From Candidatus Omnitrophota bacterium (GTDB taxonomy: Bacteria; Omnitrophota; Gorgyraeia; Duberdicusellales; 4484-171), in NCBI GenBank assembly GCA_016935525.1, contig JAFGQU010000013.1, positions 90,523-154,522 on the forward strand: a stretch of 64,000 nucleotides of DNA. Direction: 5' to 3'. Positions 18,438 to 53,509 of this stretch are shown here, one piece after another (within the stretch, counting starts at the first letter, position 1; every line of letters starts with the position of its first letter). The position numbers were made by a program, and so were the translations under genes. The notes under the pieces were generated by a model. It searched no databases and was not told the origin of the DNA. It saw only the letters and a program-made list of their open reading frames with translations.

Positions 18438-18456
18438 GCTTCACCGGAGGTGAAGC
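18438..18456 (+). terminator. stem-loop GCTTCACC-gga-GGTGAAGC followed by CCCGTT/AACGGG repeat hairpins
   Basis: Perfect 8-bp stem located 25 nt after the PEP-CTERM stop. There is no adjacent U-tract, although a T5 run lies about 20 nt downstream. Further cccgttc / aacggg inverted repeats extend to about 18530. Confidence 0.4.
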
Positions 18457-18540
18457 TTCCCGTTCACCCGTTCTTTTTAACGGGCATAACGGGGGGAACG
18501 GGCTAACGGGTTAACCGGACTATTCTTACCGCTATTTTAT

Positions 18541-18619: not shown

Positions 18620-18648
18620 TTGACAAGCCGGGGATATGTCCTATAATA
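18620..18648 (+). promoter_or_regulatory. sigma70 promoter (TTGACA-17nt-TATAAT) of the regulator/PAPS operon
   Basis: Consensus TTGACA at 18620-18625 and consensus TATAAT at 18643-18648 with a 17-nt spacer. The MarR-like gene ATG is at 18656. Confidence 0.7.
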
Positions 18649-18655
18649 TTGTTCA

Positions 18656-19069
18656 ATGTTTGAACAATCTCCGGATAAAAAGAACAATGGTGCTGCCGAA
18701 TTAGAACGGGAAGAGATACTCAATCTCCTCTCCGAACTCCATAAAACCCCGGACATCACCCAACGGGAGATGTCTTTGCGGCTGGATGTCTCCTTGGGGA
18801 AAGTCAATTATCTTCTTAACGCCCTTATTAAAAGGGGACTTTTAAGTATCAAAAATTTCTCGAAAAACGAAGGTAAAGTAAAACTCAAACGGGTCAAATA
18901 TAACCTTACGAAAAAAGGGTTTCAGGAGAAACTCAAACTTACCTACCACTTTCTCAAGAAAAAAGAAAAAGAATTCAACCGGTTATGTGAAGAATGGGAA
19001 GACCTGAAAAATCTTTCCGAAACCCTGCAGAAAGCCGGGATCGAGTTGGAAGGGGGGAGCAAACGATGA
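18656..19069 (+). CDS. small winged-helix transcriptional regulator, MarR-like (EPS-associated type)
   Basis: 137 aa. The central region [30 protein letters not shown] reads as HTH then wing. The size and layout resemble the MarR-family regulators that accompany PEP-CTERM/EPS loci. Its stop overlaps the start of sat/cysC. Confidence 0.55.
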
Positions 19070-20958
19070 ACGATGACCTTATGATCTCCGCGCACGGCGG
19101 ACGTGGGCTGATCAACCGGACGATCCCGGAGATAGAACGGGACCATTTTATCGAAAAAGTCTTAAAGCATAAAGTCTATACGATACGTAACGCGGATCTC
19201 GCGACATTTTACCGTATTGCCGACGGAACGCTTTCTCCGTTAGAAGGGCCGATGGGTAAAGATGAATTTTACCGGGTATTAGAAGATGAGATTATCGAAC
19301 GGGATGGAAAAAAATATGCCTGGACGATTCCGCTTGCTTTTCCTGTCGGTAAAAAGGAAAGTAAACAATTTGAGGTGGGTGAGACGATCGCGATAAAAAA
19401 CGAACACGGCCAGATCGTAGGAGCTTTAGAGGTCTCCGATATCTATCCGTTCGATAAGAAACTTTATAATAAATCGGTCTATGGAACCGAACGGACCGGT
19501 CATCCCGGGCCGCGTATCGTCAATGATGACGCCAGAGATCATCTTTTAGGCGGGAAGATCTGGGCGATCAAAGAGCCTCTTCATCCGGTATATGGGAAAT
19601 ATATGCTTTCGCCGGAAGAAACGCGAGCATTATTTACCGAACGTGCATGGGGCAAGGTCGTCGCGTTTCAGACCAGGAATCCCCTGCATCGCGCTCATGA
19701 ATATACTATGGTCTATGCGGCCGAGACCTTGACCAAAGAAGGATTTTTTACCGGAGTCGTCCTTAACCCGCTGGTCGGTACGACTAAAAGTGACGATGTT
19801 CCGGCAGAAATAAGGATGAGGACGTATGAATCATTACTTAAACATAGATTGATCGGCTATGGAGATAAGAACGAAAAATTCTGGGAAGAGAAAGGATATG
19901 ACCTGTGTGATCAGCTCGTATTGGTCGGATTAGACATAAAAATGTTTTATGCCGGCCCGAAAGAGGCGGTTATGCACGCGATCTACCGGCAAAACCTGGG
20001 ATTTACCCACCTCATTATCGGCCGGCGTCATGCCGACGCTCCGTTTGATGACGGTAAACAGGTATGGGGCGATTTTGACGCGCAGGAGAAATTCGAACAG
20101 TTAAACGGTGAGTTGCTTATCCGGCCTTTAAAGGTAGGGTTTGCCGCTTATTATGAGGAACTGGGCCGGGTAGGGTTGATGGATGAGTATAAAGAGAAAG
20201 GGTACCACACGATAAGTATCAGCGGAAAAGAATTAAGAAAAAAACTGAATTCCGGGGACGATATCGATGAACGGATCATGCGTAAACCGGTTGCCGATAT
20301 TTTACGTGAATTCTACGCTGACCGTCAAAAAGAAGAGACCAAAACTAAAAGTACGAATATTACCTGGCATGATGTAAAAGTCACCAAAAAAGAACGGGAA
20401 TTACGTAATAAACATCGCGGCGCGGTCATCTGGATGACCGGGCTTTCGGCGTGCGGGAAATCGACGATCGCGGTCAAACTTCAGTCGCAACTGTTTACCC
20501 GGGGTGTAAACGTCTATGTGCTTGACGGTGATAATGTCCGGCACGGGTTGAACAAAAACCTGGGTTTCTCGCCCGAGGACCGTACCGAAAATATACGCCG
20601 GATCGCGGAAGTCGCGAAACTCTTTGCCGATGCCGGGTTTTTGGTGATTACCTCCTTTATCTCTCCTTACCGGCGTGACCGGGACGCGGCAAGAGCATTA
20701 TTAGGAGATGGAGACTTTATCGAGGTGTTTGTGAACACCTCGTTAGAAGAATGTGAAAAAAGAGACCCTAAAGGCCTTTATAAAAAAGCGCGGAAGGGTG
20801 AGGTGAAAGAATTTACCGGGATATCCGCGCCGTATGAAGAACCGGAAAATCCGGAAGTGATCATTAAGACCGAGAACGAGACCAAAGAAGAAAGCGCTCA
20901 GTTTTTGGTCAATTGGTTAGAAGAAAAAGGCTATATACCACGCAGCGTAGTCGTATAA
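19066..20958 (+). CDS. sat/cysC: bifunctional sulfate adenylyltransferase (ATP sulfurylase) / adenylylsulfate kinase, PAPS synthase
   Basis: The N-terminal two-thirds carries [10 protein letters not shown] and GRRHAD-type ATP-sulfurylase motifs. The C-terminal third carries [16 protein letters not shown] (P-loop) and the [13 protein letters not shown]-kinase motif. Confidence 0.85.
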
Positions 20959-21018
20959 TCGTGAAGGAATGGCCGTAAAATAGATGGAAATACAGTCGCA
21001 ATACGATAGAAATGCATG

Positions 21019-21053
21019 GAAATACAATTGTATTTCAACGTATTTCGCGAAAT
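21019..21053. promoter_or_regulatory. two adjacent perfect palindromes upstream of the second APS kinase gene
   Basis: GAAATACAATTGTATTTC is an 18-bp perfect palindrome at 21019-21036. ATTTCGCGAAAT is a 12-bp perfect palindrome at 21042-21053. Both are embedded in a gaaatac-rich region spanning 20960-21098. Confidence 0.6.
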
Positions 21054-21098
21054 GGAATTGAGCATATTTCTATGTATTTCAAATCATAGGAGAGATAT

Positions 21099-21821
21099 GT
21101 GTTTCGGGAGACAAAACGCCGGTCAGCTTTAAAAACTATTTCCTGGCGCGTAGTCGCGACACTCACGACTACGTTGTTAGTGTTTATTTTTACCGGGAAA
21201 CTTTCTATCGCGATCACGGTAGGAAGTATTGAAGTCATCGCGAAACTGATATTTTATTTTTTCCATGAACGGATGTGGGATAAGATCAATTTCGGCCGCA
21301 GAGAATTAAATCCTTTCGTGATATGGCTTACGGGACTGCCGGCTTCCGGTAAAACTACGATCGGTGACGCGTTAGCCGGTGAATTAAAGAAAATGAACAT
21401 AAAAACCGAACGGCTCGATGCCCATCAGGTAAGAGATATTTTCCCGGAAGAAGGATTCTCCCGTGAAGAACGTAACCGGCATATCAAACGGGTAGGGCAC
21501 CTGGCGAGTGTGCTTGAGAAAAACAACGTGTGTGTGATCGCTTCGTTCATTTCGCCTTATACCGAAAGCCGTGATTTTGTGAGAGGGTTATGCAGGAACT
21601 TTGTCGAAGTGTATATATCGGTTTCGCTTGAAACCTGTCAAAAACGGGATTCCCGCGGGCTTTATGAAAAAGCAAGACGAGGCGAGATACAGAATTTTAC
21701 CGGGATTTCGGATACGTACGAAGAACCGGTGAATCCTGAGATCATAATTGATACCGACCATGAAACGATAGAGGAGAGTGTGAGAAAGATATCCTCTTTT
21801 GTAAAGAAGAAATATTTGTGA
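21099..21821 (+). CDS. cysC: adenylylsulfate kinase with N-terminal membrane (DUF2061-like) domain
   Basis: Residues 1-60 are hydrophobic with two TM helices. They are followed by VIWLTGLPASGKTTIG (P-loop) and the LDAHQVRD ... FISPY APS-kinase motifs. The C-terminal half aligns with the C-terminus of the upstream Sat/CysC (EVYISVSLETCQKRDSRGLYEKARRGEIQNFTGIS against [35 protein letters not shown]). Confidence 0.75.
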   Translation: MFRETKRRSALKTISWRVVATLTTTLLVFIFTGKLSIAITVGSIEVIAKLIFYFFHERMWDKINFGRRELNPFVIWLTGLPASGKTTIGDALAGELKKMNIKTERLDAHQVRDIFPEEGFSREERNRHIKRVGHLASVLEKNNVCVIASFISPYTESRDFVRGLCRNFVEVYISVSLETCQKRDSRGLYEKARRGEIQNFTGISDTYEEPVNPEIIIDTDHETIEESVRKISSFVKKKYL

Positions 21822-21843
21822 AAAGATTACAGTGATTTTAAAT

Positions 21844-21882
21844 CTGTGATCATCTGTGGTTATCATCAGCGATCATCAGTGC
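21844..21882. repeat. TGTGATCATCTG-type repeats (second locus)
   Basis: ctgtgatcatctgtggttatcatcagcgatcatcagtg. Confidence 0.65.
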
Positions 21883-21911
21883 ATGCCCGAAGGGCAACGT
21901 GTGACGAAGAT

Positions 21912-22769
21912 ATGAGAAATACATTAGGAAAAATATCGTTGGTAGATATTTTACGTATTGCCGAAAGGGCCGGACAAGAGATATTGACGGTCTATGGTTC
22001 CGCGTTTGAAGTAGAAAAAAAAGAAGATACATCGCCGTTGACGTTAGCCGATAAAAGATCGCATGCGTTGATCGTGAAGGAATTAGAAATGCGTTACCCG
22101 GACATTCCTATCCTTTCGGAAGAAGGCAAAGGAATCCCCTATGAGCAGAGAAAAAACTGGGAATATTTCTGGCTGGTAGATCCTCTGGACGGGACGAAAG
22201 AGTTCGTAAACCGCAACGGAGAATTTACCGTCAATATCGCTTTGATCCGTAATGCAAAATCTATATTAGGCGTAATCTATGTGCCGGTAAAAGATACGTT
22301 TTATTTTGCAAAAGAAGGCCAAGGAGCCTATAAATTGGAAGGCAGTAAGAAGTTGAAGACTGTCCATGATGAAGAGAGCCTTTTTAATATTTCCCAAAAG
22401 CTACCAACGACGAACGACGAACGACGATATACTATCATCGCCAGCCGTTCTCATCTGTCGGATGAGACAAAAAATTATATCGATAGTTTAAAAGGAACCC
22501 ATAGTGAGATTAGAATCGTATCTATCGGGAGTTCTCAGAAATTCTGTCTTATTGCCGAAGGGACCGCTGATTGTTATCCGCGGTTCGGCCCGACGATGGA
22601 ATGGGATACCGCTGCCGGACAGGTCATTGCCGAAGAAAGCGGCGCGACAATAATGATAGCCGAAGGAGGCGAACCGTTACGTTACAACAAAGAAAACCTT
22701 TTAAATCCCTGGTTCATCGTTCAACAGAAAAGCGTATTGTATTATTCAGAGGATGTGTTGAAAAAATGA
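21912..22769 (+). CDS. cysQ: 3'(2'),5'-bisphosphate nucleotidase CysQ (inositol monophosphatase family)
   Basis: WLVDPLDGTKEF is the metal-binding DPxDGT motif, and the overall IMPase fold is present. The location next to the PAPS-forming genes supports the call. Confidence 0.75.
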   Translation: MRNTLGKISLVDILRIAERAGQEILTVYGSAFEVEKKEDTSPLTLADKRSHALIVKELEMRYPDIPILSEEGKGIPYEQRKNWEYFWLVDPLDGTKEFVNRNGEFTVNIALIRNAKSILGVIYVPVKDTFYFAKEGQGAYKLEGSKKLKTVHDEESLFNISQKLPTTNDERRYTIIASRSHLSDETKNYIDSLKGTHSEIRIVSIGSSQKFCLIAEGTADCYPRFGPTMEWDTAAGQVIAEESGATIMIAEGGEPLRYNKENLLNPWFIVQQKSVLYYSEDVLKK

Positions 22770-23167: not shown

Positions 23168-24193
23168 GTGAAAAAAGCGTTGATCACCGGTATTACCGGC
23201 CAGGACGGAAGTTATTTAGCCGAATTATTGCTTGAAAAAGGATATGAAGTGTATGGATTGGTACGCCGGGTCGCTTTTGAAGACCAGGCTCATCGCATGA
23301 CCAGGATCCTGCATATTAAAGATAACCTTGATCTTGTCGCCGGTTCAGTAGAAAGTTTTCCCAGTATTTATAAAATAGTTCAGCAAGTCAGGCCTGATGA
23401 AGTATACCATCTGGCCGCGCAGAGTTTTGTCTCTTACAGTTTCGATGATGAATTCTCTACCTTACAGACCAATATCAACGGTACTCACCATATCCTTTCG
23501 GCGTGTAAAGACCTTAATACTCCGGTACGGGTCTATTTCGCCGGTTCAAGCGAGATGTTCGGCCAGGTAAGAGAAGTCCCGCAGAAAGAGACAACCCCGT
23601 TTCATCCCCGTTCCCCTTATGGGGTTTCTAAAGTGACCGGATTCGAACTTACTAGAAATTACCGGGAAGCGTACGGTATGTTTACCTGTAACGGGATCCT
23701 GTTTAATCACGAATCGCCTCGGCGGGGTTATGAGTTTGTCACCAGGAAAATTACCTCATCAGTGATCAATATTAAATCCGGTACACAGGATACACTGCTT
23801 CTGGGGAACCTCGATGCCAAACGGGACTGGGGATTTGCCGGTGATTATGTGAAAGCGATGTGGCTTATGCTCCAGCAGGATACCCCGGATGATTATGTGG
23901 TCGCAACCGGTGAGGCCCATACCGTGAGAGAATTTGCCGGGCTCGCTTTTAAATACGCCGGGTTCGATATCACATGGGAAGGGAAAGGGACTGATGAGAA
24001 AGGTATCGATACACATACCGGTAAAGTAGTGGTCGAGGTGGATACACAGTTTTTCCGTCCGGCGGAAGTGAACCTTTTGATCGGCGATTATAGTAAAGCA
24101 AAAAAAATATTAGGATGGAAACCACAGGTGACGTTTGAAGGATTAGTAAAAATGATGGTTGAATCCGATCGGGAGGCATATGGATCATCGTAA
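23168..24193 (+). CDS. gmd: GDP-mannose 4,6-dehydratase
   Basis: 341 aa. ALITGITGQDGSYLAELLLEKGYEVYGLVRR and the downstream YxxxK / ETTPFHPRSPYGVSK region are near-canonical for Gmd. Confidence 0.95.
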   Translation: MKKALITGITGQDGSYLAELLLEKGYEVYGLVRRVAFEDQAHRMTRILHIKDNLDLVAGSVESFPSIYKIVQQVRPDEVYHLAAQSFVSYSFDDEFSTLQTNINGTHHILSACKDLNTPVRVYFAGSSEMFGQVREVPQKETTPFHPRSPYGVSKVTGFELTRNYREAYGMFTCNGILFNHESPRRGYEFVTRKITSSVINIKSGTQDTLLLGNLDAKRDWGFAGDYVKAMWLMLQQDTPDDYVVATGEAHTVREFAGLAFKYAGFDITWEGKGTDEKGIDTHTGKVVVEVDTQFFRPAEVNLLIGDYSKAKKILGWKPQVTFEGLVKMMVESDREAYGSS

Positions 24194-25016
24194 GGTTCTT
24201 ATATTAGGTAAAGGTTTTATCGGGACAAGGATCTGTCAGGAACTACAGTGCGATATCGATGAAGAGATGATATCCCGTTACGAAGATGCCGAAAAACTGG
24301 TCAAAAAACATAATCCTAAAATATTGATCAACTGTATCGGTTTTACCGGCACAAAAAACGTCGATGGGTGCGAAGAGAAAAAAAATCAGACCCTTCTTGC
24401 CAACGTATTCATACCGATCATGCTGGCTGAAGTCGCGTTACGTCACGATATCAAATTCGTCCATATCAGTTCCGGCTGTATCTATCATTATGATTTTGAG
24501 CGTGACGAACCGATTCCAGAGATTAAACCGCCCGATTTTTTCGACCTTTTTTACAGCCGCAGCAAGATGTACTGTGAAGGCTCCTTAGGTATGATAGAAG
24601 AAAAATACCGGATGCTTGCGTTACGATTACGTATTCCGCTCGATGACCGGCCGCATCCGCGGAATCTCTTGACTAAACTGATCTCGTTTGGCCGGGTCAT
24701 CGATATCCCTAATTCGATAAGTTATATTCCCGATTTTATAGAGATGTTACGGCATCTGATCGAAAAAGACGCTTTCGGTATATATAATACGGTAAATAAA
24801 GGGGCTTTGAGGTATCCCGAACTTCTTGACGTATACAAAAAATACCGGCCGGATTTTGATTATTCGGTGATCCCCATAAAAGACCTTAATTTAGTGAGGA
24901 CGAATCTGGTCCTTTCTACGGAGAAATTGGAAAAAAGCGGGTTTCACGTACGCGATATTAATGAGATATTAGAGGAATGTGTCGGTACATATTTAGAAAG
25001 TGAGGTTGCAAAATGA
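24180..25016 (+). CDS. SDR-fold NAD(P)-dependent sugar-nucleotide reductase/epimerase (RmlD/Rmd-like)
   Basis: GxGxxG-like VLILGKGFIGTRI at the N-terminus, about 278 aa. Its position right after gmd suggests a GDP-4-keto-6-deoxymannose reductase or a related enzyme. Confidence 0.55.
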   Translation: MDHRKVLILGKGFIGTRICQELQCDIDEEMISRYEDAEKLVKKHNPKILINCIGFTGTKNVDGCEEKKNQTLLANVFIPIMLAEVALRHDIKFVHISSGCIYHYDFERDEPIPEIKPPDFFDLFYSRSKMYCEGSLGMIEEKYRMLALRLRIPLDDRPHPRNLLTKLISFGRVIDIPNSISYIPDFIEMLRHLIEKDAFGIYNTVNKGALRYPELLDVYKKYRPDFDYSVIPIKDLNLVRTNLVLSTEKLEKSGFHVRDINEILEECVGTYLESEVAK

Positions 25017-26026
25017 AGTTTACCATCGGATTTGAAAAAGAAGACATGAAAGTATTACACCGTTATTGGGATGAGATCGTCGAATCACAACGATGGAGTG
25101 AATGGAAATTTACTCAAAGTTTTGAAGAAAAATGGAACGCGTTGCATAATACAACATCCGTCGCTTTTTCCAGCTGGGGCGGCGCGGCCTTGGCGGCTCT
25201 TGAGTTTTTTAAGATAAAAGGGAAAACCGTTCTTTGTCCATCGAATACGTTTATGGCGACACCGCTGAGCGCGGTAAAAGCCGGAGCGCAGGTCGAATTT
25301 GTCGATTGCCGCCGCGATGATCTATGTGTTGATATTGAAGATCTGAAGAAAAAAATAGAAAAATATAAACCGGCAGCCGTATGGGTTGTCCATATCGGCG
25401 GGCATATCTCTTTTGCGATAGAAGAGATCGCCCGATTCTGTAAAACCAAAGGGATCATTCTTTTGGAAGATTGCGCTCATGCCCATGGCGCGTCTTGGAA
25501 CGGAAAAGCCGCTGGTACCTGGGGAGATGCGGGAATATACTCGTTTTACGCGACAAAGACGATTTCTACCGGTGAAGGAGGGATGTTGGTGACCAAACAT
25601 CAGGCGTTGGCCGATTACGCGAAAGCGTACCGTAATTACGGGAAATTTGATTATAAAGTAGAAGGGTTGAATTACCGGATGAGCGAGTTTACCGCGGCTA
25701 TGGGGTGCGTACAGTCCGATAGATTGAACGATATTGTCAGTTGGAAAAACGAATATGCCGCTAAATATCTCGATCCGCAGTATCCCAACCGTATAAAATT
25801 TCCCGAAGGGATGGTGTCGGGATATTATAAATATATCGTGTTTGAGGAAATAGAGAAATCGACCGGGAAAGTATATGACCAACCCTGCCATAAGATCATG
25901 GGTAAAGATTACGAATTACCCAATACCGAATGGGTAGCTCAACATCATTGGTGTGTTCCTTTATATTATAAAGGAGCGGATTTAGAGCTTGCCGGATCAG
26001 TAGAAGAAAGGAGCGTGCAATCATGA
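25013..26026 (+). CDS. DegT/DnrJ/EryC1/StrS-family PLP-dependent sugar aminotransferase
   Basis: FYATKTISTGEGGMLVT contains the PLP-lysine motif (K in ATKTIS). The downstream Y(R)NYG region is also present. Confidence 0.8.
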   Translation: MKFTIGFEKEDMKVLHRYWDEIVESQRWSEWKFTQSFEEKWNALHNTTSVAFSSWGGAALAALEFFKIKGKTVLCPSNTFMATPLSAVKAGAQVEFVDCRRDDLCVDIEDLKKKIEKYKPAAVWVVHIGGHISFAIEEIARFCKTKGIILLEDCAHAHGASWNGKAAGTWGDAGIYSFYATKTISTGEGGMLVTKHQALADYAKAYRNYGKFDYKVEGLNYRMSEFTAAMGCVQSDRLNDIVSWKNEYAAKYLDPQYPNRIKFPEGMVSGYYKYIVFEEIEKSTGKVYDQPCHKIMGKDYELPNTEWVAQHHWCVPLYYKGADLELAGSVEERSVQS

Positions 26027-26979
26027 AAGTATTAGTCACCGGAGGGTCAGGATTTATCGGGTCACATGTAGTTGATAAACTCCGTGATAAAGGGGTCGAA
26101 GTGAGAATATTCGATATGGTATTCCCCGCGTTTCGCAGTGATATCGAATATTATCAGGGCAGTTTGTTGGATTTTGAGACGGTACGGATGTCGATGAACG
26201 GTATTGACGCGGTATTACATCTGGGCGCGGTGGCTGACGTGAACTTTGTGTTTGCCGAACCGCATTATTCCGAATCGATCAATGTGCGCGGGACGATCAA
26301 TGTGTTAGAAGCCGCGCGCCGGGCGAAAGTGAAAAGAATCGTCTACGGCAGTACTACCTGGGTATACAGTGAAGCCGAAGGGACTCATGTGAACGAGAAT
26401 ACTCCGTTACATGCTCCCTCGCATCTTTATACCGCGACCAAGATGGCCGGAGAATTTTACTGTAAGACGTATAGTAAATTGTACGATCTTGAAGTAACGA
26501 TCCTTCGTTACGGTATCCCTTACGGCCCGCGGGCGCGCGATGCGGCGGTGATCCCTATTTTTGTCCGGAAAGCGTTAAGCGGTGAGGCGCTCACGATTGC
26601 CGGAGACGGTTCACAGTTCCGTAAATTCGTATATGTTGAAGATTTAGCTGAAGGGAATGCCCTTGGGCTTAAATCTATCGCGAAAAATAAAACCTATAAT
26701 CTCGACGGCCAGGAAAAAGTCACGATCAAACAGATCGCCGAAACGATTAAGAAGATCATCGGTAACGTGAAGATCGAATATGTCCCGGCCCGGCCGGGTG
26801 ATTTTTCCGGAAAAGAAGTCTCAAGTATTATGGCGAAAGAAGAATTGAACTGGGAACCGAAAGTGCCTTTTGAAGAAGGAGTACGCCGCTATATCGATTG
26901 GTATAAACAACGGGAAGAATACCGTAAACGTGCCTGGGATAATCTGGATGATACTTTAAAAGAAGGCGCGTTACGATGA
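26023..26979 (+). CDS. NAD-dependent epimerase/dehydratase (extended SDR; UDP-sugar 4-epimerase-like)
   Basis: VLVTGGSGFIGSHVVDKL Rossmann motif and YxxxK (YTATKMAGE). Confidence 0.8.
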   Translation: MKVLVTGGSGFIGSHVVDKLRDKGVEVRIFDMVFPAFRSDIEYYQGSLLDFETVRMSMNGIDAVLHLGAVADVNFVFAEPHYSESINVRGTINVLEAARRAKVKRIVYGSTTWVYSEAEGTHVNENTPLHAPSHLYTATKMAGEFYCKTYSKLYDLEVTILRYGIPYGPRARDAAVIPIFVRKALSGEALTIAGDGSQFRKFVYVEDLAEGNALGLKSIAKNKTYNLDGQEKVTIKQIAETIKKIIGNVKIEYVPARPGDFSGKEVSSIMAKEELNWEPKVPFEEGVRRYIDWYKQREEYRKRAWDNLDDTLKEGALR

Positions 26980-27644
26980 AAAAGGTATTGGTAGTTGCTC
27001 CCCATATGGATGACGAAGTCTTAGGTATGGGGGCGACTATCGCCAAACATGTCGCTGCCGGAGATGAAGTGCATGTGTGTATTATTGCGCACCGGGTATA
27101 TGACCATAAGTATGATGAGGAGACCAACCGTGAAGAACTGGAATCGACGAAAAAAGCAAAAGATATTTTAGGTTATCAACATTTGGAATTTTTGAATCTT
27201 CCTGATGAACGTCTGGACGGATGTGTGCAGGATATCCTCATTCCGCTTGAGAAGTATTACAATGAATTGAATCCGGATATTTTGTACGTTAATTTTTATG
27301 GCGATAACAATCAGGACCATCGGGCGGTGTTTTCCGCGGTACGGATACTTATCCGTTCGGCAAACACCTATAAAGTCCCGCGGGTGCTTATGTATGAAGT
27401 CCCTTCTTCGACTGACCAATCACCGCCGATACCGGATGCGATCTTTGTCCCGAACTTTTATGTCGATGTATCGGGGGTATGGCAGAAAAAGATCGAAGCG
27501 TTCCATTGTTACCAGAGGGAAAGGCGCGTGTCGCCTCATCCGCGCAGTGATAAGGCTCTCGATGCGCTTGTCATACGCCGCGGCGTCGAAGGCGGTTTTG
27601 AACGGGCCGAAGGGTTTATGTTATTAAGGGATGAATGGAAATGA
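26976..27644 (+). CDS. PIG-L/LmbE-family N-acetyl sugar deacetylase
   Basis: VVAPHMDDEVLGMG (HxDDE metal site) and the later HRAV / H-x-D motifs. Confidence 0.8.
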   Translation: MKKVLVVAPHMDDEVLGMGATIAKHVAAGDEVHVCIIAHRVYDHKYDEETNREELESTKKAKDILGYQHLEFLNLPDERLDGCVQDILIPLEKYYNELNPDILYVNFYGDNNQDHRAVFSAVRILIRSANTYKVPRVLMYEVPSSTDQSPPIPDAIFVPNFYVDVSGVWQKKIEAFHCYQRERRVSPHPRSDKALDALVIRRGVEGGFERAEGFMLLRDEWK

Positions 27645-28345
27645 TCAAAGTGCTTGGCTGTATTCAGGCAAGGATGGGGTCGCGGCGGCTACCGGGGAAA
27701 GTATTAAAAAAGATATCCGGAAAATCGTTGATTGTCCATATCATCGAACGATTGCGGGCCTGTAAGACGATAGACCGTATAGTGCTTGCGACATCGAAAA
27801 AAGAAGAGGATGACCTGTTAGAAAAGGTGGCTTGTAAAAATGGCATCGAATGTGTTCGCGGGTCCGAACAGAATGTACTCAAACGTTTTTATGATGTCGT
27901 TTGTCTGTACTGGCCGCATCATATCGTACGGATATGTGCCGATAGTCCCTTGATCGATCCCCTAGAGATCGACCGCATTGTACGCCACCATATACGTAGA
28001 GATGCCGATTATTCGTTTAATCATATTCCCGAGATGAATAACAGTTATCCGGACGGAGTAGGGGCCGAGATCTTTAAAAGTAATGTGATCGCGAATATTA
28101 TCAGACAAAAGACAACAAAAGCCGAACAGGAGCATATCAATGAGTATATCTGGAACCATTTGGACCGGTTCCGTATCGAGACGATAGCTGCTCCCAAAAG
28201 TATCGCTTATCCCGAATATCGTTTTGAAGTCAATACCGAGGATGATTTAAAATTTATACGTAAGATCTATAACCACCTTTATGAAGGGAAAGCCTTTAAT
28301 ACCCGATCGGTAATAGAATATTTAAAGTCACAATCGGTCCAATAA
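27635..28345 (+). CDS. acylneuraminate cytidylyltransferase-family protein (CMP-nonulosonate synthetase / SpsF-like)
   Basis: N-terminal IQARMGSRRLPGKVLKKISGKSLI is the nucleotide-binding motif of CMP-KDO/CMP-NeuAc synthetase-like cytidylyltransferases. Confidence 0.7.
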   Translation: MEMIKVLGCIQARMGSRRLPGKVLKKISGKSLIVHIIERLRACKTIDRIVLATSKKEEDDLLEKVACKNGIECVRGSEQNVLKRFYDVVCLYWPHHIVRICADSPLIDPLEIDRIVRHHIRRDADYSFNHIPEMNNSYPDGVGAEIFKSNVIANIIRQKTTKAEQEHINEYIWNHLDRFRIETIAAPKSIAYPEYRFEVNTEDDLKFIRKIYNHLYEGKAFNTRSVIEYLKSQSVQ

Positions 28346-28350
28346 AACGT

Positions 28351-29046
28351 ATGGAAAAGAAGGTCGTCGCTATCCAGCAACCCGAACATCTTCCCTGGCT
28401 GGGATTCTTTGACAAGATGAAACGTTGTCATGAATATATTTACTTGGATAACGTCCAGTTTAAAAAACGGTATTTTGAGAACCGTAACCGTATTTTGACC
28501 GAACAGGATATCCAATGGGTCACGGTTCCGGTAAAGACAAAAGGAAAATATCACCAGTATATTAACGAAGTGCTTATTGATGATGAAAAGCCCTGGCGCA
28601 GAAAATATCTGGGTATTATTCAACGGGCATATGCGAAAAGTCCGGAATTTGAGCGGTATTACGGTGAGCTTACCGATATCATTTCCCGTCCGGTCACGCG
28701 CCTGGTCGATTTGAATATTATGCTTATCGACTGGATAAGGACACATTTAGAGATTACGACACCGGTACGATGCGCTTCCGATATACGGGGATATCACGAT
28801 AAAGGGAGCGATTTGATCCTGGCGATTTGTAAAGATACAAAAGCCGATGTGTATATATCCGGTCCCGACGGCAGGAATTATCTCGATTTCGATGCATTTG
28901 CCGAGGAAAGAATCGAAGTCGTTTTCCATGAGTATCACCATCCGGTCTATCGACAAATGTCTGAACCGTTTCAAAGCCATATGTCAATCATTGATATATT
29001 GTTTTGCGGACAAAAAGATCAAATAGCCCAGAAAGTTTTTATTTAA
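28351..29046 (+). CDS. WbqC-like family protein
   Basis: The N-terminus VVAIQQPEHLPWLGFFDKM matches the WbqC family opening (MQP-Y/H-LPW-GYF). Confidence 0.7.
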   Translation: MEKKVVAIQQPEHLPWLGFFDKMKRCHEYIYLDNVQFKKRYFENRNRILTEQDIQWVTVPVKTKGKYHQYINEVLIDDEKPWRRKYLGIIQRAYAKSPEFERYYGELTDIISRPVTRLVDLNIMLIDWIRTHLEITTPVRCASDIRGYHDKGSDLILAICKDTKADVYISGPDGRNYLDFDAFAEERIEVVFHEYHHPVYRQMSEPFQSHMSIIDILFCGQKDQIAQKVFI

Positions 29047-29055
29047 AAAAGAAAA

Positions 29056-29850
29056 ATGATTTCTCAAAAGACGATTGAATATGGATTGCGCAAGGCAGGG
29101 TTGAAAAAAGGGGATACTGTTTTGGTCCACAGTTCATTGCGTAGCCTCGGGCCATTAGAAGGTGTCGATCCCGATGACCGTAATGGGTTTGTAAGCACGG
29201 TGTTTGCCGCGTTCTCCCGGATTTTAGGGTTACCTCGGCAGGGGACTTTAGTTGTGCCGACATTTACTCACGAGTACGCCCGTAATAATATCCCGTTTAT
29301 GTATGAAAAGAGCCCTTCGGAAGTGGGTTTATTCACCGAATACGTTCGTAAACAGAAAGGGGCGTACCGGTCGATGCATCCAATAAATTCGTTTTGTGCG
29401 ATCGGAAAGAAAAAACACGATATCTGTAAAGACGTGAGCATTTCCTGTTACGGATATAATTCTGTTTTTGATCGTCTTTATCAATTAGATGCAAAAATGA
29501 TGTTTTTCGGTTGCGGTATGTATCATATGACGTTGAAACATCATCTGGAGCAGATGGTGGCTTTACCTTATGTCTACACGAAAGCATATTTCACTCCGGT
29601 ATATAAGAATAACAAACCGGTAAAACTACCTTTTCTTGCGGTAGTACGGTATTTGAACGGGAGAGTCAACAACAACGATTGCCGGCAGTTTGAGCGTCAT
29701 CTAAAAAAGAAGAGAATGCTTACGAGTGTAGAAATCAGTAAAACGAAAATACTTCTTATGCGTATCCGTGACGCGTATGATCAAGGATATGAACTATTGC
29801 AGAAGAATCCCTGTTATTTTTTAAAAAAACCTTACTACACGACAAAATGA
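29056..29850 (+). CDS. AAC(3)-fold N-acetyltransferase-like protein
   Basis: LKKGDTVLVHSSLRSLGPLEG resembles the N-terminal motif of aminoglycoside 3-N-acetyltransferase-family proteins. In this locus it is a candidate amino-sugar N-acyltransferase. Confidence 0.55.
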   Translation: MISQKTIEYGLRKAGLKKGDTVLVHSSLRSLGPLEGVDPDDRNGFVSTVFAAFSRILGLPRQGTLVVPTFTHEYARNNIPFMYEKSPSEVGLFTEYVRKQKGAYRSMHPINSFCAIGKKKHDICKDVSISCYGYNSVFDRLYQLDAKMMFFGCGMYHMTLKHHLEQMVALPYVYTKAYFTPVYKNNKPVKLPFLAVVRYLNGRVNNNDCRQFERHLKKKRMLTSVEISKTKILLMRIRDAYDQGYELLQKNPCYFLKKPYYTTK

Positions 29851-30932
29851 AAAGCATTTTCATAACTGGGATGTTTCGTTCCGGGACGACACTATTAGCC
29901 AGAATGTTGGACGTGCATCCGGATGTCTCTGCCGTGTATCAGGTGATCACACCTTTTTTTCGGATGTGGCGGAATATTTTCCTTGGTGAATATGATTGTG
30001 AGAGGCTACTCCAGCTGCCGATGGGGAGTAATGTGTTATTCGATTTGGGATTATATGAAAAGTTCATCCAAGAAGCCTGGCGCGTTCGATTCGACGAAAA
30101 ACACATCTTACAGTTAAAAGAAGATCTATCGTGTGAATTGTATCGTGATGCTCATGAGAAACCGCTTTTAAAAAAAGGATTATTCGCTACGCTCACTCCC
30201 GGTGGTACGGTAGAAGATGTATTGATACAGCTTATCCGCTGTGTATATCCCGATATCGATGCACAAAAATATGTTGGGTTTAAAGAGATATGGTGTGAAG
30301 AGTTTATCCCGGTTTTACTTAAACTGTCTGAAGTCAAGTTTAATGCCATACAGATAATCCGTGATCCGAGAGGTGTATTTGCGTCACGCAATACCGGTAA
30401 TTATCTTAAAGAATGCGGCGGTAAACGGTATCCCTTATTGTTTATCGCCGAGACGTGGAATAGAAGTGCCGATATATTATTTCGTTGTAAGGATTTGGAC
30501 GGTTTCTTTCCAGTCCGTTACGAAGATATTGTTTCTTTTCCCAAAGAAACAATACAAAAGATCTGTGCATTTCTCGACATAGATTTTTATGATGATATGG
30601 CCAACCCGGAGAATTTTACCGATAGTAAGGGTAAACAGTGGAGGCCCAATACTACAGGAGACGATACTCGGCCCCGGTTTTTAAACAGTCAGACGAACTA
30701 TTGGAAAACCGCTTTAAATGATGAGGAAATCGGCAGTATCGAGTTTTTATGCGGCGAATCTATGGATACCCTGGGATACCAAAGAAAATTTACCCGTGAA
30801 CAGGCCCATCAATTATTCCTTCGATATCAAGAAGAAACTGATGAGATACATCCCTGGCTTGTCCCTTTGGGGTATGTATGTACAGCGGCCCGTAAAGAAA
30901 AAGAACTGGCAAAATTGGAACGTATTTCATGA
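29847..30932 (+). CDS. sulfotransferase-family protein
   Basis: The N-terminal 5'-PSB loop is IFITGMFRSGTTLLARML. A central RDPRG region gives a 3'-PB-like motif. Confidence 0.8.
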   Translation: MKSIFITGMFRSGTTLLARMLDVHPDVSAVYQVITPFFRMWRNIFLGEYDCERLLQLPMGSNVLFDLGLYEKFIQEAWRVRFDEKHILQLKEDLSCELYRDAHEKPLLKKGLFATLTPGGTVEDVLIQLIRCVYPDIDAQKYVGFKEIWCEEFIPVLLKLSEVKFNAIQIIRDPRGVFASRNTGNYLKECGGKRYPLLFIAETWNRSADILFRCKDLDGFFPVRYEDIVSFPKETIQKICAFLDIDFYDDMANPENFTDSKGKQWRPNTTGDDTRPRFLNSQTNYWKTALNDEEIGSIEFLCGESMDTLGYQRKFTREQAHQLFLRYQEETDEIHPWLVPLGYVCTAARKEKELAKLERIS

Positions 30933-31918
30933 AAGTAAATGTCGATCAATTCGCGTTAGATACCCGGATGAGAGGATTTTGGTGGCAATGGAAAAGAAGG
31001 TATCCGTTTTCGTTTATGCGTAATCGTATCGAATGGTACGCGTATCCTCAGTTTAAAGTCGTTCCGCGGTTCCCTTTACATGTGGATTTTGAGATCTCAT
31101 CTCTTTGTAATCTTCAGTGCCCGATGTGTTATCGTCCGCATCGTACCGATAGTAATGACGGGTTCATGGATTTAAATGCCTATAAACAGGGGGTCGACGA
31201 GTGCGCTAAATTCGATTTGTATTCGATCCGGTTAAGCTGGCGGGGAGAACCGACCATGCATTCGGATCTGGTCGAGATGGTCCGGTACGCCAAAGAAAAA
31301 GGGATAAAAGAAGTCTCGTTTATCACGAACGGTTTTAAACTGGATGAAAAACTCTCCCATGATCTCGTAACTGCCGGGATCGACTATTTTTCCGTATCGA
31401 TCGATGGAGTAGGCGAAAAATATAACGAGATCAGGTATCCGTCCCGGTTCGATGAGATGGTTAAACGTCTAAAGAATATGCGTGAGTTACGGGATACGAT
31501 CGGGGGGGGATATCCGCGGATACGGATCAACTCTATATGGAGCGCGATCAAAGACACTAAACAGGATTATTATAATACGTTTTCTCCGATCGTCGATTTT
31601 ATCACTGTTAATCCCGATTATGACCATTCGTTAAAAGATACCGGGATCGATCCCGACCATGTTTGTCAATATCTTTACCAGCGGTTGACCGTTATGTGGG
31701 ACGGTACGGTGCCGTTATGTATCTGTGATAAATCAAAAGAGGTAGTGTTAGGAAAGCTGGGTATCGATTCGTTATACGATATTTGGCATAGCTCGTTACT
31801 TAATAAGATGAGAGATCTGCAGAAACAGGGGCGGATAAGAGAGATAGTTCCCTGCACTAAATGTCAACGGTCGCTTACCGCGCAGATCGGAAACCAGAGG
31901 GACGTGAAGAAAAAATGA
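30929..31918 (+). CDS. radical SAM protein with C-terminal partial SPASM/twitch domain (paralog 1)
   Basis: CNLQCPMC is a CxxxCxxC motif. The C-terminus TVMWDGTVPLCICD ... CTKCQ gives a C-X12-G-X4-C first SPASM motif plus CxxC. Confidence 0.8.
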   Translation: MKVNVDQFALDTRMRGFWWQWKRRYPFSFMRNRIEWYAYPQFKVVPRFPLHVDFEISSLCNLQCPMCYRPHRTDSNDGFMDLNAYKQGVDECAKFDLYSIRLSWRGEPTMHSDLVEMVRYAKEKGIKEVSFITNGFKLDEKLSHDLVTAGIDYFSVSIDGVGEKYNEIRYPSRFDEMVKRLKNMRELRDTIGGGYPRIRINSIWSAIKDTKQDYYNTFSPIVDFITVNPDYDHSLKDTGIDPDHVCQYLYQRLTVMWDGTVPLCICDKSKEVVLGKLGIDSLYDIWHSSLLNKMRDLQKQGRIREIVPCTKCQRSLTAQIGNQRDVKKK

Positions 31919-32787
31919 AAACGATAATTATTGCTGAAATCGGTGAATGTTTTAACGGTGATATGGACCAGGCGAGAAAACTGATCGTGACCGCGAAAGC
32001 CGCCGGATGTGATTATGCCAAGTTTCAAACTTTGGATCGAGAAGGGATAGCCGAAGACGATCCGGAACGGGAATGGTTTTTGAAGGTAGCCCTTCAAAAA
32101 GAACAGTTAACACAACTGCAGAGTTGGTGCAGGGACGCGGGTATCGGGTTTCTCTGTACTCCGGAAAATAAGAAAAAAGCCGAAGAATTAAAAGAGCTGG
32201 GATGCCGGGAAGTAAAAATCGCCAGTACCTGTGCGTGGGATGATGAGTTGGTCTCTTATATATCGGAACATTTTTCCATCATTTTTGTATCGACCGGTTT
32301 ATCGACATTAGAAGAAGTCGATAAAGTCGTATCCCGTCTTAAAAAGCAGGAAAAAATATACCTTATGCATTGCGTATCGGAATATCCGACCGGCCCGTTA
32401 CTTACCCAACGGGGACTGCAGGCGTTATCTCATGAAAACGTGAATTTGCGGATGATGGATATCCTGAAAGAACGGTATCCCCATTGTGTAGTAGGGTATT
32501 CCGATCATACGGTGGATATAATAGTGCCGGTTGTCGCGGTTGCCCGGGGAGCGGGAGTGATCGAGAAACATATCACCCTGGATCGGAAAGGCCCGGTGAA
32601 TCTCTTCCTTTCCAAGCGCGGCTATAGCGGTACCGACCATGTGTTATCACTCGAGCCGGATGAGTTGAAAGAGATGGTCCGTCAGATAAGAGAAACCGAA
32701 AAAATATTAGGCGAAGCGGTCTGGCAGCGCAGTCCGGGAGAGAAGATCTTGATGGATTTTTTAAAAGGGCGGTTTTCTAATCCATGA
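31915..32787 (+). CDS. N-acetylneuraminate/pseudaminate synthase family (NeuB/PseI/SpsE-like) TIM-barrel protein, no SAF domain
   Basis: MKTIIIAEIGECFNGDMDQARKLIVTAKAAGCDYAKFQT matches the NeuB N-terminus (IAEIG-NHNG, AKFQ). At 290 aa it ends before the usual C-terminal SAF domain. Confidence 0.75.
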   Translation: MKTIIIAEIGECFNGDMDQARKLIVTAKAAGCDYAKFQTLDREGIAEDDPEREWFLKVALQKEQLTQLQSWCRDAGIGFLCTPENKKKAEELKELGCREVKIASTCAWDDELVSYISEHFSIIFVSTGLSTLEEVDKVVSRLKKQEKIYLMHCVSEYPTGPLLTQRGLQALSHENVNLRMMDILKERYPHCVVGYSDHTVDIIVPVVAVARGAGVIEKHITLDRKGPVNLFLSKRGYSGTDHVLSLEPDELKEMVRQIRETEKILGEAVWQRSPGEKILMDFLKGRFSNP

Positions 32788-33782
32788 AATATGTTTTTTT
32801 AACTCAAGGATCGCAGGCAGTCGGATACGGCCATGTATATGAGGCCCTCGCGATTGCCGAGACGTTATCTTCACCGGCTGATTTTATCTTGTTTGACTCT
32901 TCGGATATCGCCGAAACGATTGTGCGTCAAAAAGGGTATAACCGGATAAAAAGGCTAACTATGGATACGCTGGATACATGTGATATTTCCCGGGAGACGT
33001 GCGTGGTCTTAGACACCCGGTTGAACGATATCGTTCTCCAGAAGAAGATCCGCACACATGCCGGGAGACTCATCATGATCGATGAGTTAGGCGATAAAAA
33101 AGTCGATTGTGATGTCCTTATTAATTTCAGTATCTGTAAAGAATGGGTTTCTTCTTATCGTTACGAAAAAGAACCTCACTGTTTTTTCGGAGCACAATAC
33201 TATCCGTTACGCGAAGAATTTCTCTCTTTACCTAAAAAGGATAAGGGGCATCCGGTAAAAAGAGTGCTGATCAGCATGGGGGGAGCGGACCGGACACGGG
33301 CCACGTTAAAGATCGCCGAAAGTTGCGCATCGATAGAAGGCTGCGAATTTACTTATATCGTCGGCGGGGGATTTGAGTTTGGGTTAGACGAAATAAAAAC
33401 ATGTACCGGAAATAGAAAAAAACATCACATCATTAAAGATTCGTCCGATTTTGCCGGAATCTTAAATAGTCACGATATGATCATCACTGCCGGCGGAAAT
33501 ACGCTGTTCGAAGCCGCGTTTTGCGGGGTGCCGTCGCTGGTGGTATGGGAAGATGAACATGAACGGGTTCAGGGAGAAGCCTTTGAGCAATATGGAGTTG
33601 CTCGAGTGATAGGAAACGCCGGGGGATTTTCCGCTGAACAATTGCGAAATACGATAGAAAAAGTCCTGTCCAATCCTGCAGTACTGAAAAAAATGTCCGA
33701 TACCGGAAAGAAGCTGGTTGATGGAAACGGGTGTGAACGTATCACTCATATTTTAAGGGGAGTAAAAAATGTCAGTGTTTAA
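32784..33782 (+). CDS. PseG-like UDP-sugar hydrolase / GT28 C-terminal-domain family protein
   Basis: The N-terminus FLTQGSQAVGYGHVYEALAIAETL and the C-terminal GT-B half ITAGGNTLFEAAFCGVPSLVV resemble PseG (pseudaminic acid pathway UDP-sugar hydrolase). Confidence 0.6.
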   Translation: MKYVFLTQGSQAVGYGHVYEALAIAETLSSPADFILFDSSDIAETIVRQKGYNRIKRLTMDTLDTCDISRETCVVLDTRLNDIVLQKKIRTHAGRLIMIDELGDKKVDCDVLINFSICKEWVSSYRYEKEPHCFFGAQYYPLREEFLSLPKKDKGHPVKRVLISMGGADRTRATLKIAESCASIEGCEFTYIVGGGFEFGLDEIKTCTGNRKKHHIIKDSSDFAGILNSHDMIITAGGNTLFEAAFCGVPSLVVWEDEHERVQGEAFEQYGVARVIGNAGGFSAEQLRNTIEKVLSNPAVLKKMSDTGKKLVDGNGCERITHILRGVKNVSV

Positions 33783-37605: not shown

Positions 37606-37613
37606 AAAATAAT

Positions 37614-38483: not shown

Positions 38484-38486
38484 AAA

Positions 38487-40241: not shown

Positions 40242-40247
40242 TCAATT

Positions 40248-43702: not shown

Positions 43703-43718
43703 AAACAGGAGGAAAGTC

Positions 43719-44756: not shown

Positions 44757-44772
44757 TTTGTCTGGAGATAGT

Positions 44773-45549: not shown

Positions 45550-45612
45550 GATCGGATGTTTTAATGAACGAGTTTGTCTTAATCCCGTTTAGGCAAAAGG
45601 AGTGTATATCCC

Positions 45613-46554: not shown

Positions 46555-46558
46555 GCAT

Positions 46559-47458: not shown

Positions 47459-47475
47459 CAAGAAGGAGTATTTTT

Positions 47476-48285: not shown

Positions 48286-48287
48286 TT

Positions 48288-49304: not shown

Positions 49305-49313
49305 GGTCAAAGC

Positions 49314-52346: not shown

Positions 52347-52349
52347 AAT

Positions 52350-53480: not shown

Positions 53481-53509
53481 ATAGAGTTCTCGACGTTTAT
53501 GCGGTATTT

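Follow-up and report, generated by a model that had tools for sequence, protein, structure and literature searches.

Sulfated bacterial glycans matter in biofilms, in attachment to hosts and particles, and as biomaterials, and the genetics of the supply and delivery of PAPS (3'-phosphoadenosine 5'-phosphosulfate), the sulfate donor, to such glycans is known for only a few systems. Rhizobia reportedly employ nodPQ together with nodH or noeE, and sulfated surface polysaccharides in Mesorhizobium are said to depend on nodPQ, as Townsend et al. are credited with reporting in 2006; the xss cluster of Synechocystis, which is said to produce the sulfated exopolysaccharide (EPS) synechan, reportedly is an EPS cluster with sulfotransferases. 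The capsule cluster of Cobetia marina KMM 1449 encompasses cysN/cysC, cysD, cysQ, and a sulfate permease gene along with sulfotransferases, and the capsule has been chemically proven to be sulfated (PMC11766843). Here, we describe a 64,000-nucleotide (nt) stretch of DNA from Candidatus Omnitrophota (assembly GCA_016935525.1, contig JAFGQU010000013.1), hereafter the window, that contains about 60 genes and in which a four-gene cassette at positions 18656-22769, judged by its sequence, very likely provides the PAPS donor for glycan sulfation, so that a sulfated glycan is predicted.

The best explanation of the locus as a whole, and in our judgment a likely one, is a PAPS cycle cassette that is headed by a regulator of the MarR_EPS family and fronts a polyprenyl-phosphate-based surface heteropolysaccharide locus, with the mechanism proposed below. 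A first-pass annotation of this DNA had suggested a PAPS-for-sulfation module rather than an assimilatory one, a suggestion that gains support from the recurring gene context, the MarR_EPS regulator, and the sulfotransferases; the gene order and the elements it had named were all recovered at or very near their original positions. The listing of open reading frames (ORFs) combined with profile searches delineates the following genes, where APS denotes adenosine 5'-phosphosulfate:

18656..19069, + strand: marR_EPS, winged-helix regulator of 137 amino acids (aa) (HTH_24/MarR_2; TIGR04176)
19066..20958, + strand: sat-cysC, fusion protein of 630 aa with PUA_2, ATP-sulfurylase, and APS_kinase domains
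21099..21821, + strand: DUF2061-APSK, protein of 240 aa with DUF2061 (residues 11-61) and an APS-kinase fold (Pfam APS_kinase, residues 72-218)
21912..22769, + strand: cysQ, 3'(2'),5'-bisphosphate nucleotidase of 285 aa (TIGR01331; motifs DPLDGT, SEE, and WDTAAG)

The fusion, previously called a 630-aa ATP sulfurylase/APS kinase whose gene overlaps the stop codon of the regulator gene, conforms to this description: the domains follow each other in the order PUA_2, ATP-sulfurylase, and APS_kinase, the Pfam domain cutoffs are easily passed, and the ATG of sat-cysC overlaps the TGA of marR as ATGA. The kinase domain, which matches that of human PAPSS1 at 210 bits, retains every canonical motif, namely, the P-loop GLSACGKST, LDGDNVR with the full DGDN signature, and KGLYKKAR. 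The sulfurylase domain contains the QxRNPxHxxH motif, an insertion of about 28 residues, and GRRHAD instead of GRDHAG, and this variant (GRKHAD in L088) is common to all four fusions of this type, those of the window, of the syntenic Omnitrophota relative GCA_964483625.1 (locus L083), and of the related loci L084 and L088. The fusion falls below the NCBIfam equivalog cutoffs (423.6 vs 669 bits for NF004040 and 272.6 vs 322.95 bits for TIGR00339) and appears to represent a distinct Sat/CysC subfamily tied to glycan loci. We infer that this subfamily is divergent but active; by its motifs, the fusion alone would be a complete PAPS synthase.

The assignment of CysQ as the phosphatase of 3'-phosphoadenosine 5'-phosphate (PAP) is confirmed by a score of 289.7 bits against the TIGR01331 equivalog (cutoff, 228.8 bits) and by the presence of the metal-binding motifs of the IMPase family, with the start of the gene revised to the ATG at 21912, which is conserved in L083, rather than the GTG at 21846. 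As the first-pass annotation had stated for the surroundings of the cassette, genes of sulfate and sulfite reduction are missing: among the approximately 60 genes of the window, there is no cysH, cysIJ, or sir, nor any other sulfite reductase or sulfate transporter (permease) gene, and the linkage to PAPS/APS reductase and sulfite reductase that characterizes assimilatory operons of the cysDNC-cysHIJ type is not found within the 64 kb.

Downstream of the cassette lie the glycan genes, two sulfotransferase genes among them:

23168..63465, + strand: glycan locus that the cassette would serve, about 40 kb, tightly packed, with nearly all genes on the + strand
29847..30932, + strand: sulfotransferase 1 (Sulfotransfer_3/Sulfotransfer_1), 5'-phosphosulfate-binding motif GMFRSGTT, 3'-phosphate-binding motif RDPRGVFAS
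41938..42780, + strand: sulfotransferase 2 (Sulfotransfer_3/Sulfotransfer_1), 5'-phosphosulfate-binding motif GFQRSGTT, 3'-phosphate-binding motif RDIKGIVNS

Both proteins match the Pfam sulfotransferase families (PF13469/PF00685) and combine a 5'-phosphosulfate-binding loop, located at the extreme N-terminus, with a 3'-phosphate motif; thus, the two downstream sulfotransferases claimed in the first-pass annotation are present, with their PAPS-binding motifs intact. Weak N-terminal matches to NoeE were detected as well. Neither sulfotransferase contains a signal peptide or a transmembrane helix, so that sulfation appears to be cytoplasmic. A role for DUF2061 in the export of PAPS for periplasmic sulfation was considered and rejected as unnecessary, given that both enzymes are cytoplasmic.

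The sugar genes of the glycan locus include gmd, short-chain dehydrogenase (SDR) genes, and DegT, and a divergent nonulosonic-acid set comprises PIG-L, a CMP-transferase, WbqC, an N-acetyltransferase, and NeuB-like and PseG-like proteins. In addition, the locus encodes about 10 methyltransferases, four radical SAM/SPASM proteins, a PglK/MsbA/HepA-like ABC exporter, glycosyltransferases of the GT1, GT2, and GT4 families, a Wzy_C-like protein, and a priming EPS_sugtrans enzyme (TIGR03025, 427 bits). Sulfotransferase 1 sits in the nonulosonic-acid sub-cluster (25013-36580), within the series DegT, SDR, PIG-L deacetylase, CMP-transferase, WbqC, N-acetyltransferase, sulfotransferase 1, radical SAM protein, NeuB-like protein, PseG-like protein, methyltransferase, and GNAT. 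Given this embedding, one possibility is that the sulfated sugar is a nonulosonic acid or its precursor.

The cassette recurs in related loci. In L083, the gene order is nspC, carboxynorspermidine synthase, an unknown gene, marR, sat/cysC, DUF2061-APSK, cysQ, and gmd, with amino acid identity to the window of 79-89% for four of the five genes compared and 67% for CysQ. In L084/L085, sat/cysC and DUF2061-APSK are followed by two sulfotransferase genes, a flippase gene, and glycosyltransferase genes, and in L088/L089, the order DegT, DUF2061-APSK, sat/cysC, cysQ, and a gene for an HTH_24 regulator is found inside a run of sugar-nucleotide genes. This repeated placement of the same cassette beside sulfotransferase or sugar-nucleotide genes supports its interpretation as a source of the sulfation donor.

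The first-pass annotation had made its reading contingent on a relationship between the MarR-like gene and EPS regulators. This relationship is borne out by a score of 97.5 bits against NCBIfam TIGR04176, MarR_EPS (cutoff, 88 bits), and by the EPS setting of the gene, which extends from the PEP-CTERM protein gene upstream of the cassette to the TIGR03025 EPS_sugtrans gene. The region upstream of, and overlapping, the regulator gene contains these elements:

18571-18584 and 18596-18609, + strand: 14-mer repeats TCTG[TC]GATCATCTG, spaced by 25 nt and located shortly upstream of the -35 hexamer
18620..18647, + strand: sigma70-type promoter, TTGACA (18620-18625), 16-nt spacer, TATAAT (18642-18647), 12/12 match to consensus
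18649..18667, no strand assigned: inverted repeat with perfect 8-bp arms, TTGTTCAA-TGT-TTGAACAA, that covers the ATG and the predicted transcription start

The consensus sigma70 promoter claimed ahead of the MarR-like gene is the sole 12/12 match within 17-25 kb of the window, compared with an estimated 0.06 such matches or so expected by chance in 64 kb on both strands, and it is conserved in L083: the 38-nt block at 18618-18655, which runs from the -35 hexamer up to the ATG, shares 97% identity with L083 7541-7578. The rest of the spacer upstream of marR cannot be aligned with L083, and synonymous sites are saturated (pS 0.6-0.76), so that the retention of this block argues for function. Given that the ATG follows the -10 hexamer by 8 nt and that the next in-frame start codon lies inside the helix-turn-helix (HTH), the marR_EPS mRNA is probably leaderless. 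The inverted repeat, which is identical in L083, is a plausible candidate for a MarR operator involved in autoregulation. No further copy of TTGTTCAA-N3-TTGAACAA was found ahead of the glycan genes, the palindrome being unique in the window at up to 3 mismatches, and hence nothing indicates direct control of other promoters by the regulator. The 14-mer TCTG[TC]GATCATCTG has a third copy at 21843-21856, upstream of cysQ, and a degenerate copy at about 21866-21879; altogether, when up to 2 mismatches are allowed, 4 matches occur where 0.27 would be expected, all of them in the cassette spacers. These repeats, possible regulator sites, are not conserved in L083, where GTGTGAC repeats hold the same two positions.

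The third gene of the cassette had been described as encoding a second, membrane-tethered APS kinase. The membrane part of this description and the kinase fold stand: in the AlphaFold2 model (mean confidence score pLDDT, 83.7), two helices (6-31 and 36-62) precede an APS-kinase fold that extends to about residue 238, the top Foldseek matches are all APS kinases (template modeling score, 0.92 to 7yq1), and the protein scores 189 bits against TIGR00455 (cutoff, 138.7) and 169 bits against PF01583, so that by both profile and fold it belongs with the APS kinases (CysC, EC 2.7.1.25). The hairpin has a Kyte-Doolittle hydropathy of 1.6-1.9 over 19-residue windows and is flanked on both sides by basic residues, which suggests that the kinase-fold domain faces the cytoplasm. 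In the window, the gene starts with GTG behind an AGGAG ribosome-binding site, whereas its L083 homologue starts with ATG, and the dN/dS value of about 0.11 relative to L083 indicates purifying selection and hence a functional gene.

The part of the description that does not stand concerns the catalytic center. The Walker A motif is present as the P-loop GLPASGKTT, and the residues that contact APS or PAPS are retained (R112, F120, S149-F150-I-S-P-Y154, and FTG), but the second Asp of DGDN is missing: the sequence reads L-D107-A-H109-Q-V-R, opposite LDGD in all of the solved APS kinases in the alignment and opposite LDGDNVR in the neighboring fusion. In addition, the lid Lys is replaced by Arg (SRGLY). 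In human PAPSS1, D87A and D89A each abolish APS kinase activity, D89 being the counterpart of the missing second Asp (PMC8528679). With moderate confidence, we conclude from these substitutions and from the family-wide pattern described next that the membrane paralogue is catalytically impaired and has a non-catalytic role. Its origin as a recent duplicate of the kinase domain of the fusion was rejected because the two are only 45% identical and have different closest solved relatives, those of the membrane copy being of the A. pernix, A. fulgidus, and Synechocystis type and those of the fusion domain of the human/fungal type.

We collected 167 distinct DUF2061-APSK proteins through a homologue search and from genome and metagenome loci; a scan of genome contigs returned, among the matches listed, mostly plain CysC genes, and the window's own clade was not among them. 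Catalytic motifs are canonical in 101 of the 167 proteins and degenerate in the remaining 66 (roughly 40%). The position of the second Asp of DGDN has an entropy of 0 bits in the canonical group and 2.47 bits in the degenerate group (His, Lys, Glu, Leu, Arg, and others), and the corresponding values are 0.58 vs 1.75 bits for the P-loop Ser/Thr (often Lys or Arg in degenerate members), 0 vs 1.96 bits for the lid Lys, and 0 vs 1.26 bits for the Thr of FTG. The mean entropy of the DUF2061 domain is 1.22 bits in canonical and 1.23 bits in degenerate members, and R112, H128, R158, D184, G202, and the S-F-x-x-P core of SFISPY are invariant or nearly so in both groups. With the motif columns left out, a neighbor-joining tree implies that members departed from the canonical state on at least 8 independent occasions.

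Gene context differs between the two groups. Among members with at least 2.5 kb of flanking sequence on both sides, as assessed within a 4-kb radius with a crude ORF/phmmer pipeline, a further APS kinase lies near 11 of 12 degenerate members and is canonical in each case, in the form of a Sat/CysC fusion, a CysN/CysC fusion, or a CysC of about 200 aa; a canonical APS-kinase partner was found for none of the 6 canonical members (Fisher estimate, ~4e-4, for loci that are few and not phylogenetically independent). In L004 and L121, a canonical member is accompanied by a CysN-like protein without kinase motifs. Some close relatives from the clade of the window protein have GKK or GKR in the P-loop and yet keep the same gene neighborhood. 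In the Bacteroidota-type loci L090, L174, and L175, the canonical DUF2061-APSK gene is the first after a NusG-like (UpxY-type) gene and lies directly upstream of a priming transferase gene or capsule export genes, with no Sat, CysDN, CysQ, or recognizable sulfotransferase within 8 kb. All DUF2061-APSK loci with informative Pfam-annotated context are polysaccharide loci; L086/L087 (P0013) and L173 (P0089) are uninformative because they lie at contig ends.

Databases contain thousands of proteins with the DUF2061-APSK architecture, encoded in polysaccharide loci across many phyla, and the DUF2061 domain also occurs as an autonomous membrane module (3415 clusters at E <= 1e-3), the best-scoring matches being mostly tandem duplicates in proteins of 130-200 aa, which fits a hairpin dimer as the functional unit. 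Our literature searches returned only incidental mentions of DUF2061 and nothing relevant on a membrane-bound APS kinase, so that, as far as the searched literature shows, the membrane paralogue and the complementary degeneration have not been described. A tentative generalization is that DUF2061-APSK is a widespread class of membrane-anchored paralogues in polysaccharide loci whose shared function would be membrane coupling, that is, tethering, binding, or sensing of PAPS, with catalysis being dispensable and lost where a canonical kinase is co-encoded; the window gene would then be one such pseudo-kinase, associated with a sulfated nonulosonic-acid glycan.

The mechanism that we propose combines these elements. 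The sigma70-type promoter would direct an essentially leaderless marR_EPS transcript, with the regulator translationally coupled to sat-cysC through ATGA, and MarR_EPS would probably autoregulate via the 8-bp inverted repeat over the transcription start. The Sat/CysC fusion alone would convert sulfate and 2 ATP to PAPS, from which the two cytoplasmic sulfotransferases would move sulfate to a sugar, a nucleotide-sugar, or a lipid-linked intermediate, and CysQ would hydrolyze PAP, the inhibitory by-product of the sulfotransferases. The membrane paralogue, which keeps the fold, the P-loop, and the APS/PAPS contacts, most likely would act non-catalytically; it may anchor the PAPS synthase to the inner membrane through pairing of its APS-kinase fold with the canonical kinase domain or, alternatively, may bind either PAPS or APS at the place where the glycan is built up on its lipid carrier. 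The tether is the simplest model because an APS-kinase domain is the constant element of the partners in all three of their architectures and APS kinases are known to form dimers; in its specific form, with the predicted pairing of the two domains, we nevertheless rate it as rather unlikely.

The main alternative for the membrane protein is that it is a fully active second APS kinase that makes PAPS beside membrane-proximal sulfotransferases. The profile and fold matches given above, the intact P-loop and first Asp, the conserved APS-contacting residues, and the strong purifying selection all speak for this possibility, as do canonical family members in other phyla that evidently are the sole APS kinases of their modules. 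Against these stand the replacement of the Gly of DGDN by Ala and of the second Asp by His, the latter at a position where an Asp-to-Ala change kills the activity of the human enzyme; the hypervariability of this position in degenerate clades, which indicates lost constraint rather than a specific replacement; the presence of a complete canonical kinase 140 nt upstream, a pairing that degenerate members almost always show; and the loss of the P-loop Ser/Thr in some close relatives within an unchanged neighborhood. We regard an active second kinase as possible but doubtful, and the same holds for the channeling of PAPS by such a kinase suggested in the first-pass annotation, considering the D-A-H-Q loop and the decay in the branch with a co-encoded canonical kinase. 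A role in membrane proximity is plausible, with tethering or binding being likelier than catalysis. That the protein phosphorylates some other substrate, such as a nucleotide derivative or a membrane-bound acceptor, appears very unlikely: the APS/PAPS-contacting residues are invariant, the recurrent neighbors of the family are CysQ, Sat, CysN, and CysC, and a Cj1415-like APS-kinase homologue in L083 keeps DGD (IDGDQVR), which suggests that phosphotransfer in this fold needs DGD whatever the substrate. This alternative draws on the existence of APS-kinase homologues with other substrates in glycan loci, including a Cj1418-1415-like cassette in L083 (Campylobacter Cj1415 is reportedly a cytidine diphosphoramidate kinase), on the membrane anchor, which could suggest a membrane-bound substrate, and on the Bacteroidota canonical members that lie between a NusG-like gene and a priming transferase gene, with no sulfotransferase within 8 kb.

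A further alternative is that the membrane protein is not a tether of the synthase but a sensor of PAPS, APS, or PAP that couples the donor pool to export, polymerization, or sulfate uptake. Catalytic residues are lost and ligand-contacting ones kept, the DUF2061 hairpin, whose polar residues E45, K49, H56-E57-R58, and W60 are invariant, shows the same degree of conservation as in canonical members, DUF2061 is also found as an independent membrane module that is often duplicated in tandem, PAPS signals exopolysaccharide expression in Vibrio vulnificus (PMC6113621), and in fungal ATP sulfurylase, an APSK-like domain serves to sense PAPS (PMC3779200). Given, however, that no output domain or partner was identified, that no link between stand-alone DUF2061 proteins and sulfur metabolism is known, and that nothing in the sequence tells a sensor from a tether, we consider a sensor unlikely. 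At the level of the whole cassette, the alternative is an ordinary assimilatory sulfate-activation operon, leading from PAPS to sulfite and cysteine, that merely happens to adjoin a glycan locus. Sat, CysC, and CysQ do serve PAPS-dependent assimilation as well, in its first steps and in PAP clearing, the cysQ and gmd genes of the window are separated by 398 nt, and the search for reductive genes covered the 64 kb; the missing reductive and sulfate uptake genes, the EPS-associated MarR family member at the head of the cassette, the location of the trio next to sulfotransferase genes in L084/L085, within a sugar-nucleotide run in L088, and overlapping gmd in L083, and the restriction of the informative DUF2061-APSK loci to polysaccharide loci make this highly improbable.

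Several considerations weigh against donor supply with a non-catalytic membrane paralogue, which we nonetheless prefer. The window paralogue belongs to the mild end of the degenerate group, in which GKTT of the P-loop and the first Asp are retained, and metal coordination could conceivably pass to His109, leaving residual or altered kinase activity. The pairing of the DUF2061 protein with Sat/CysC is a prediction only, and the context statistics come from few loci, some of them related, and from a crude pipeline with a 4-kb radius. The cassette may be the only sulfate-activation system of the genome and might also feed assimilation, and, because of the 398-nt gap between cysQ and gmd, co-transcription with the glycan genes is only a possibility in the window.

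This gap (22770-23167) is non-coding in the window, whereas cysQ and gmd share 4 nt in L083. Within the gap lie a 14-nt inverted repeat (22883-22896/22931-22944) and CTCTGTG repeats near 22990, and no promoter or terminator was called in it. Downstream of marR, no terminator-like site was found on the + strand either within the cassette or between the cassette and the glycan genes, and promoter and terminator scans of the 22-42 kb region yielded nothing intergenic above the shuffled background. An Rfam search of the whole window gave no match, so that the spacers hold no known riboswitch or leader. Two further non-coding features flank or interrupt the cassette:

18449..18468, + strand: terminator-like hairpin followed by a T-run (stem GGTGAAGC...GTTCACC, then CGTTCTTTTT), after the PEP-CTERM gene
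20959..21098, no strand assigned: 140-nt spacer between sat/cysC and the DUF2061-APSK gene, with a GAAATAC/GTATTTC array at 20985-21085

The array, part of which forms an 18-bp palindrome without mismatches (21019-21036), lacks conservation in L083, gave no match in Rfam, and does not resemble a terminator. The hairpin separates the cassette from its immediate upstream neighbor, the gene for a PEP-CTERM beta-propeller-repeat protein (17193-18413), which is built of 40-residue repeats (TIGR04275) that are also seen as a 120-nt periodicity of the DNA, in 6 copies; the window revealed no exosortase gene. The genes farther upstream are housekeeping ones, namely, mreBC, PBP2, rodA, rpe, queH, nspC, and carboxynorspermidine synthase.

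Within the glycan locus, a low-GC island at 36000-40000 (0.355-0.371 vs about 0.44 GC) covers two ORFs without a family match (36577-37605 and 37614-38483) and the ABC exporter gene and is typical of the horizontally exchanged, serotype-specific parts of glycan loci; the ORFs of the locus without a family match received no NCBIfam assignment above the cutoff. The four radical SAM/SPASM proteins are paralogues of about 300-330 aa (30929-31918, 35576-36580, 40248-41162, and 45613-46554), none of which scores above any NCBIfam cutoff, the best weak match being a tungsten-cofactor maturase. L083 carries, between its SDR and DegT genes (13554-17927), four extra genes that the window does not have; these encode an 805-aa PPDK_N/PEP-utilizers protein, a Peptidase_C26 glutamine amidotransferase, an NTP_transferase, and a 173-aa APS-kinase homologue (GLSAAGKST, IDGDQVR). 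We take this set to be that of the Campylobacter O-methyl-phosphoramidate pathway (Cj1418-Cj1415), which suggests a phosphoramidate-modified glycan in L083.

If the membrane paralogue is a tether or a sensor, it would be a bacterial counterpart to the organization of eukaryotic sulfation by Golgi PAPS transport and a useful part for engineering the microbial production of sulfated polysaccharides. The annotation of DUF2061-APSK genes would then need a caveat: databases label these proteins plainly as 'adenylyl-sulfate kinase' even though about 40% of the sampled members are degenerate.

Compared with known systems, the window shares with rhizobial nodPQ the principle of an extra, pathway-dedicated PAPS synthase copy that feeds glycan or glycolipid sulfotransferases, but nodPQ is of the CysDN/CysC type, is not known to include CysQ or a membrane APSK paralogue, is regulated by NodD, and serves a lipochitooligosaccharide or the K-antigen/lipopolysaccharide as acceptor. 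The Synechocystis xss cluster, like the Pontiella cluster considered below, is an EPS cluster of the Wzx/Wzy or ABC type and reportedly contains PF13469/PF00685 sulfotransferases; we know of no report of DUF2061-APSK for it, and its regulators, to our knowledge, differ from that of the window. The Sat/APS kinase of Aquifex aeolicus, which serves assimilation and is not known to serve a glycan locus, has the same domain order and likewise unites both activities in one chain; its structure (PDB 2gks) is the best PDB sequence match of the window fusion (294 bits), which differs by the sulfurylase insertion of about 28 residues, by GRRHAD instead of GRDHAS/G, and by falling below the NF004040 cutoff.

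Non-catalytic APSK-like domains have precedents: the C-terminus of Penicillium chrysogenum ATP sulfurylase is an allosteric PAPS-binding domain, and yeast has a similar domain with an undefined function (PMC3779200). Like the window paralogue, the P. chrysogenum domain keeps the APS-kinase fold, has lost catalytic motifs (in our alignment of PDB 1i2d and 1m8p, GKD in the P-loop and LGD for DGD), and works alongside a true PAPS-forming activity. The fungal domain is soluble and fused to the sulfurylase and retains ligand binding, whereas the window copy is separate and membrane-anchored, with an intact P-loop and ligand binding that is predicted only. Closer to Omnitrophota, the putative sulfated-EPS cluster of Pontiella, of the Planctomycetes-Verrucomicrobia-Chlamydiae (PVC) superphylum, resembles the window in its PF13469/PF00685 sulfotransferases, gmd, methyltransferases, and DegT-type transaminase but has different regulators and no reported DUF2061-APSK, and the text of the paper mentions neither PAPS nor cysC nor adenylyl (PMC7356697).

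The Cobetia marina cluster is the closest documented analogue, such that the arrangement in the window is of a known kind: in both, PAPS synthesis and PAP recycling genes (in the window, the PAPS synthase and cysQ) are found within one surface-polysaccharide cluster that also encodes sulfotransferases, with the difference that the window is known from its genes alone. Cobetia has a GTPase-coupled CysDN sulfurylase in place of the homo-oligomeric Sat fusion of the window and a sulfate permease gene that the window does not have; it has no MarR_EPS regulator, and its listed PAPS genes include no membrane-anchored APSK paralogue (PMC11766843). With such capsule-cluster cassettes documented, and with thousands of DUF2061-APSK members in the databases, the earlier statement that sulfated cell-surface glycans are rare outside a few bacterial lineages is overstated. 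Our search of the literature for Omnitrophota and sulfotransferases found nothing relevant and, as far as the searched literature shows, a PAPS cassette is new in this phylum. The locus described here extends the pattern of a donor cassette combined with sulfotransferases, as in Cobetia, to Omnitrophota, an uncultured, PVC-related phylum.

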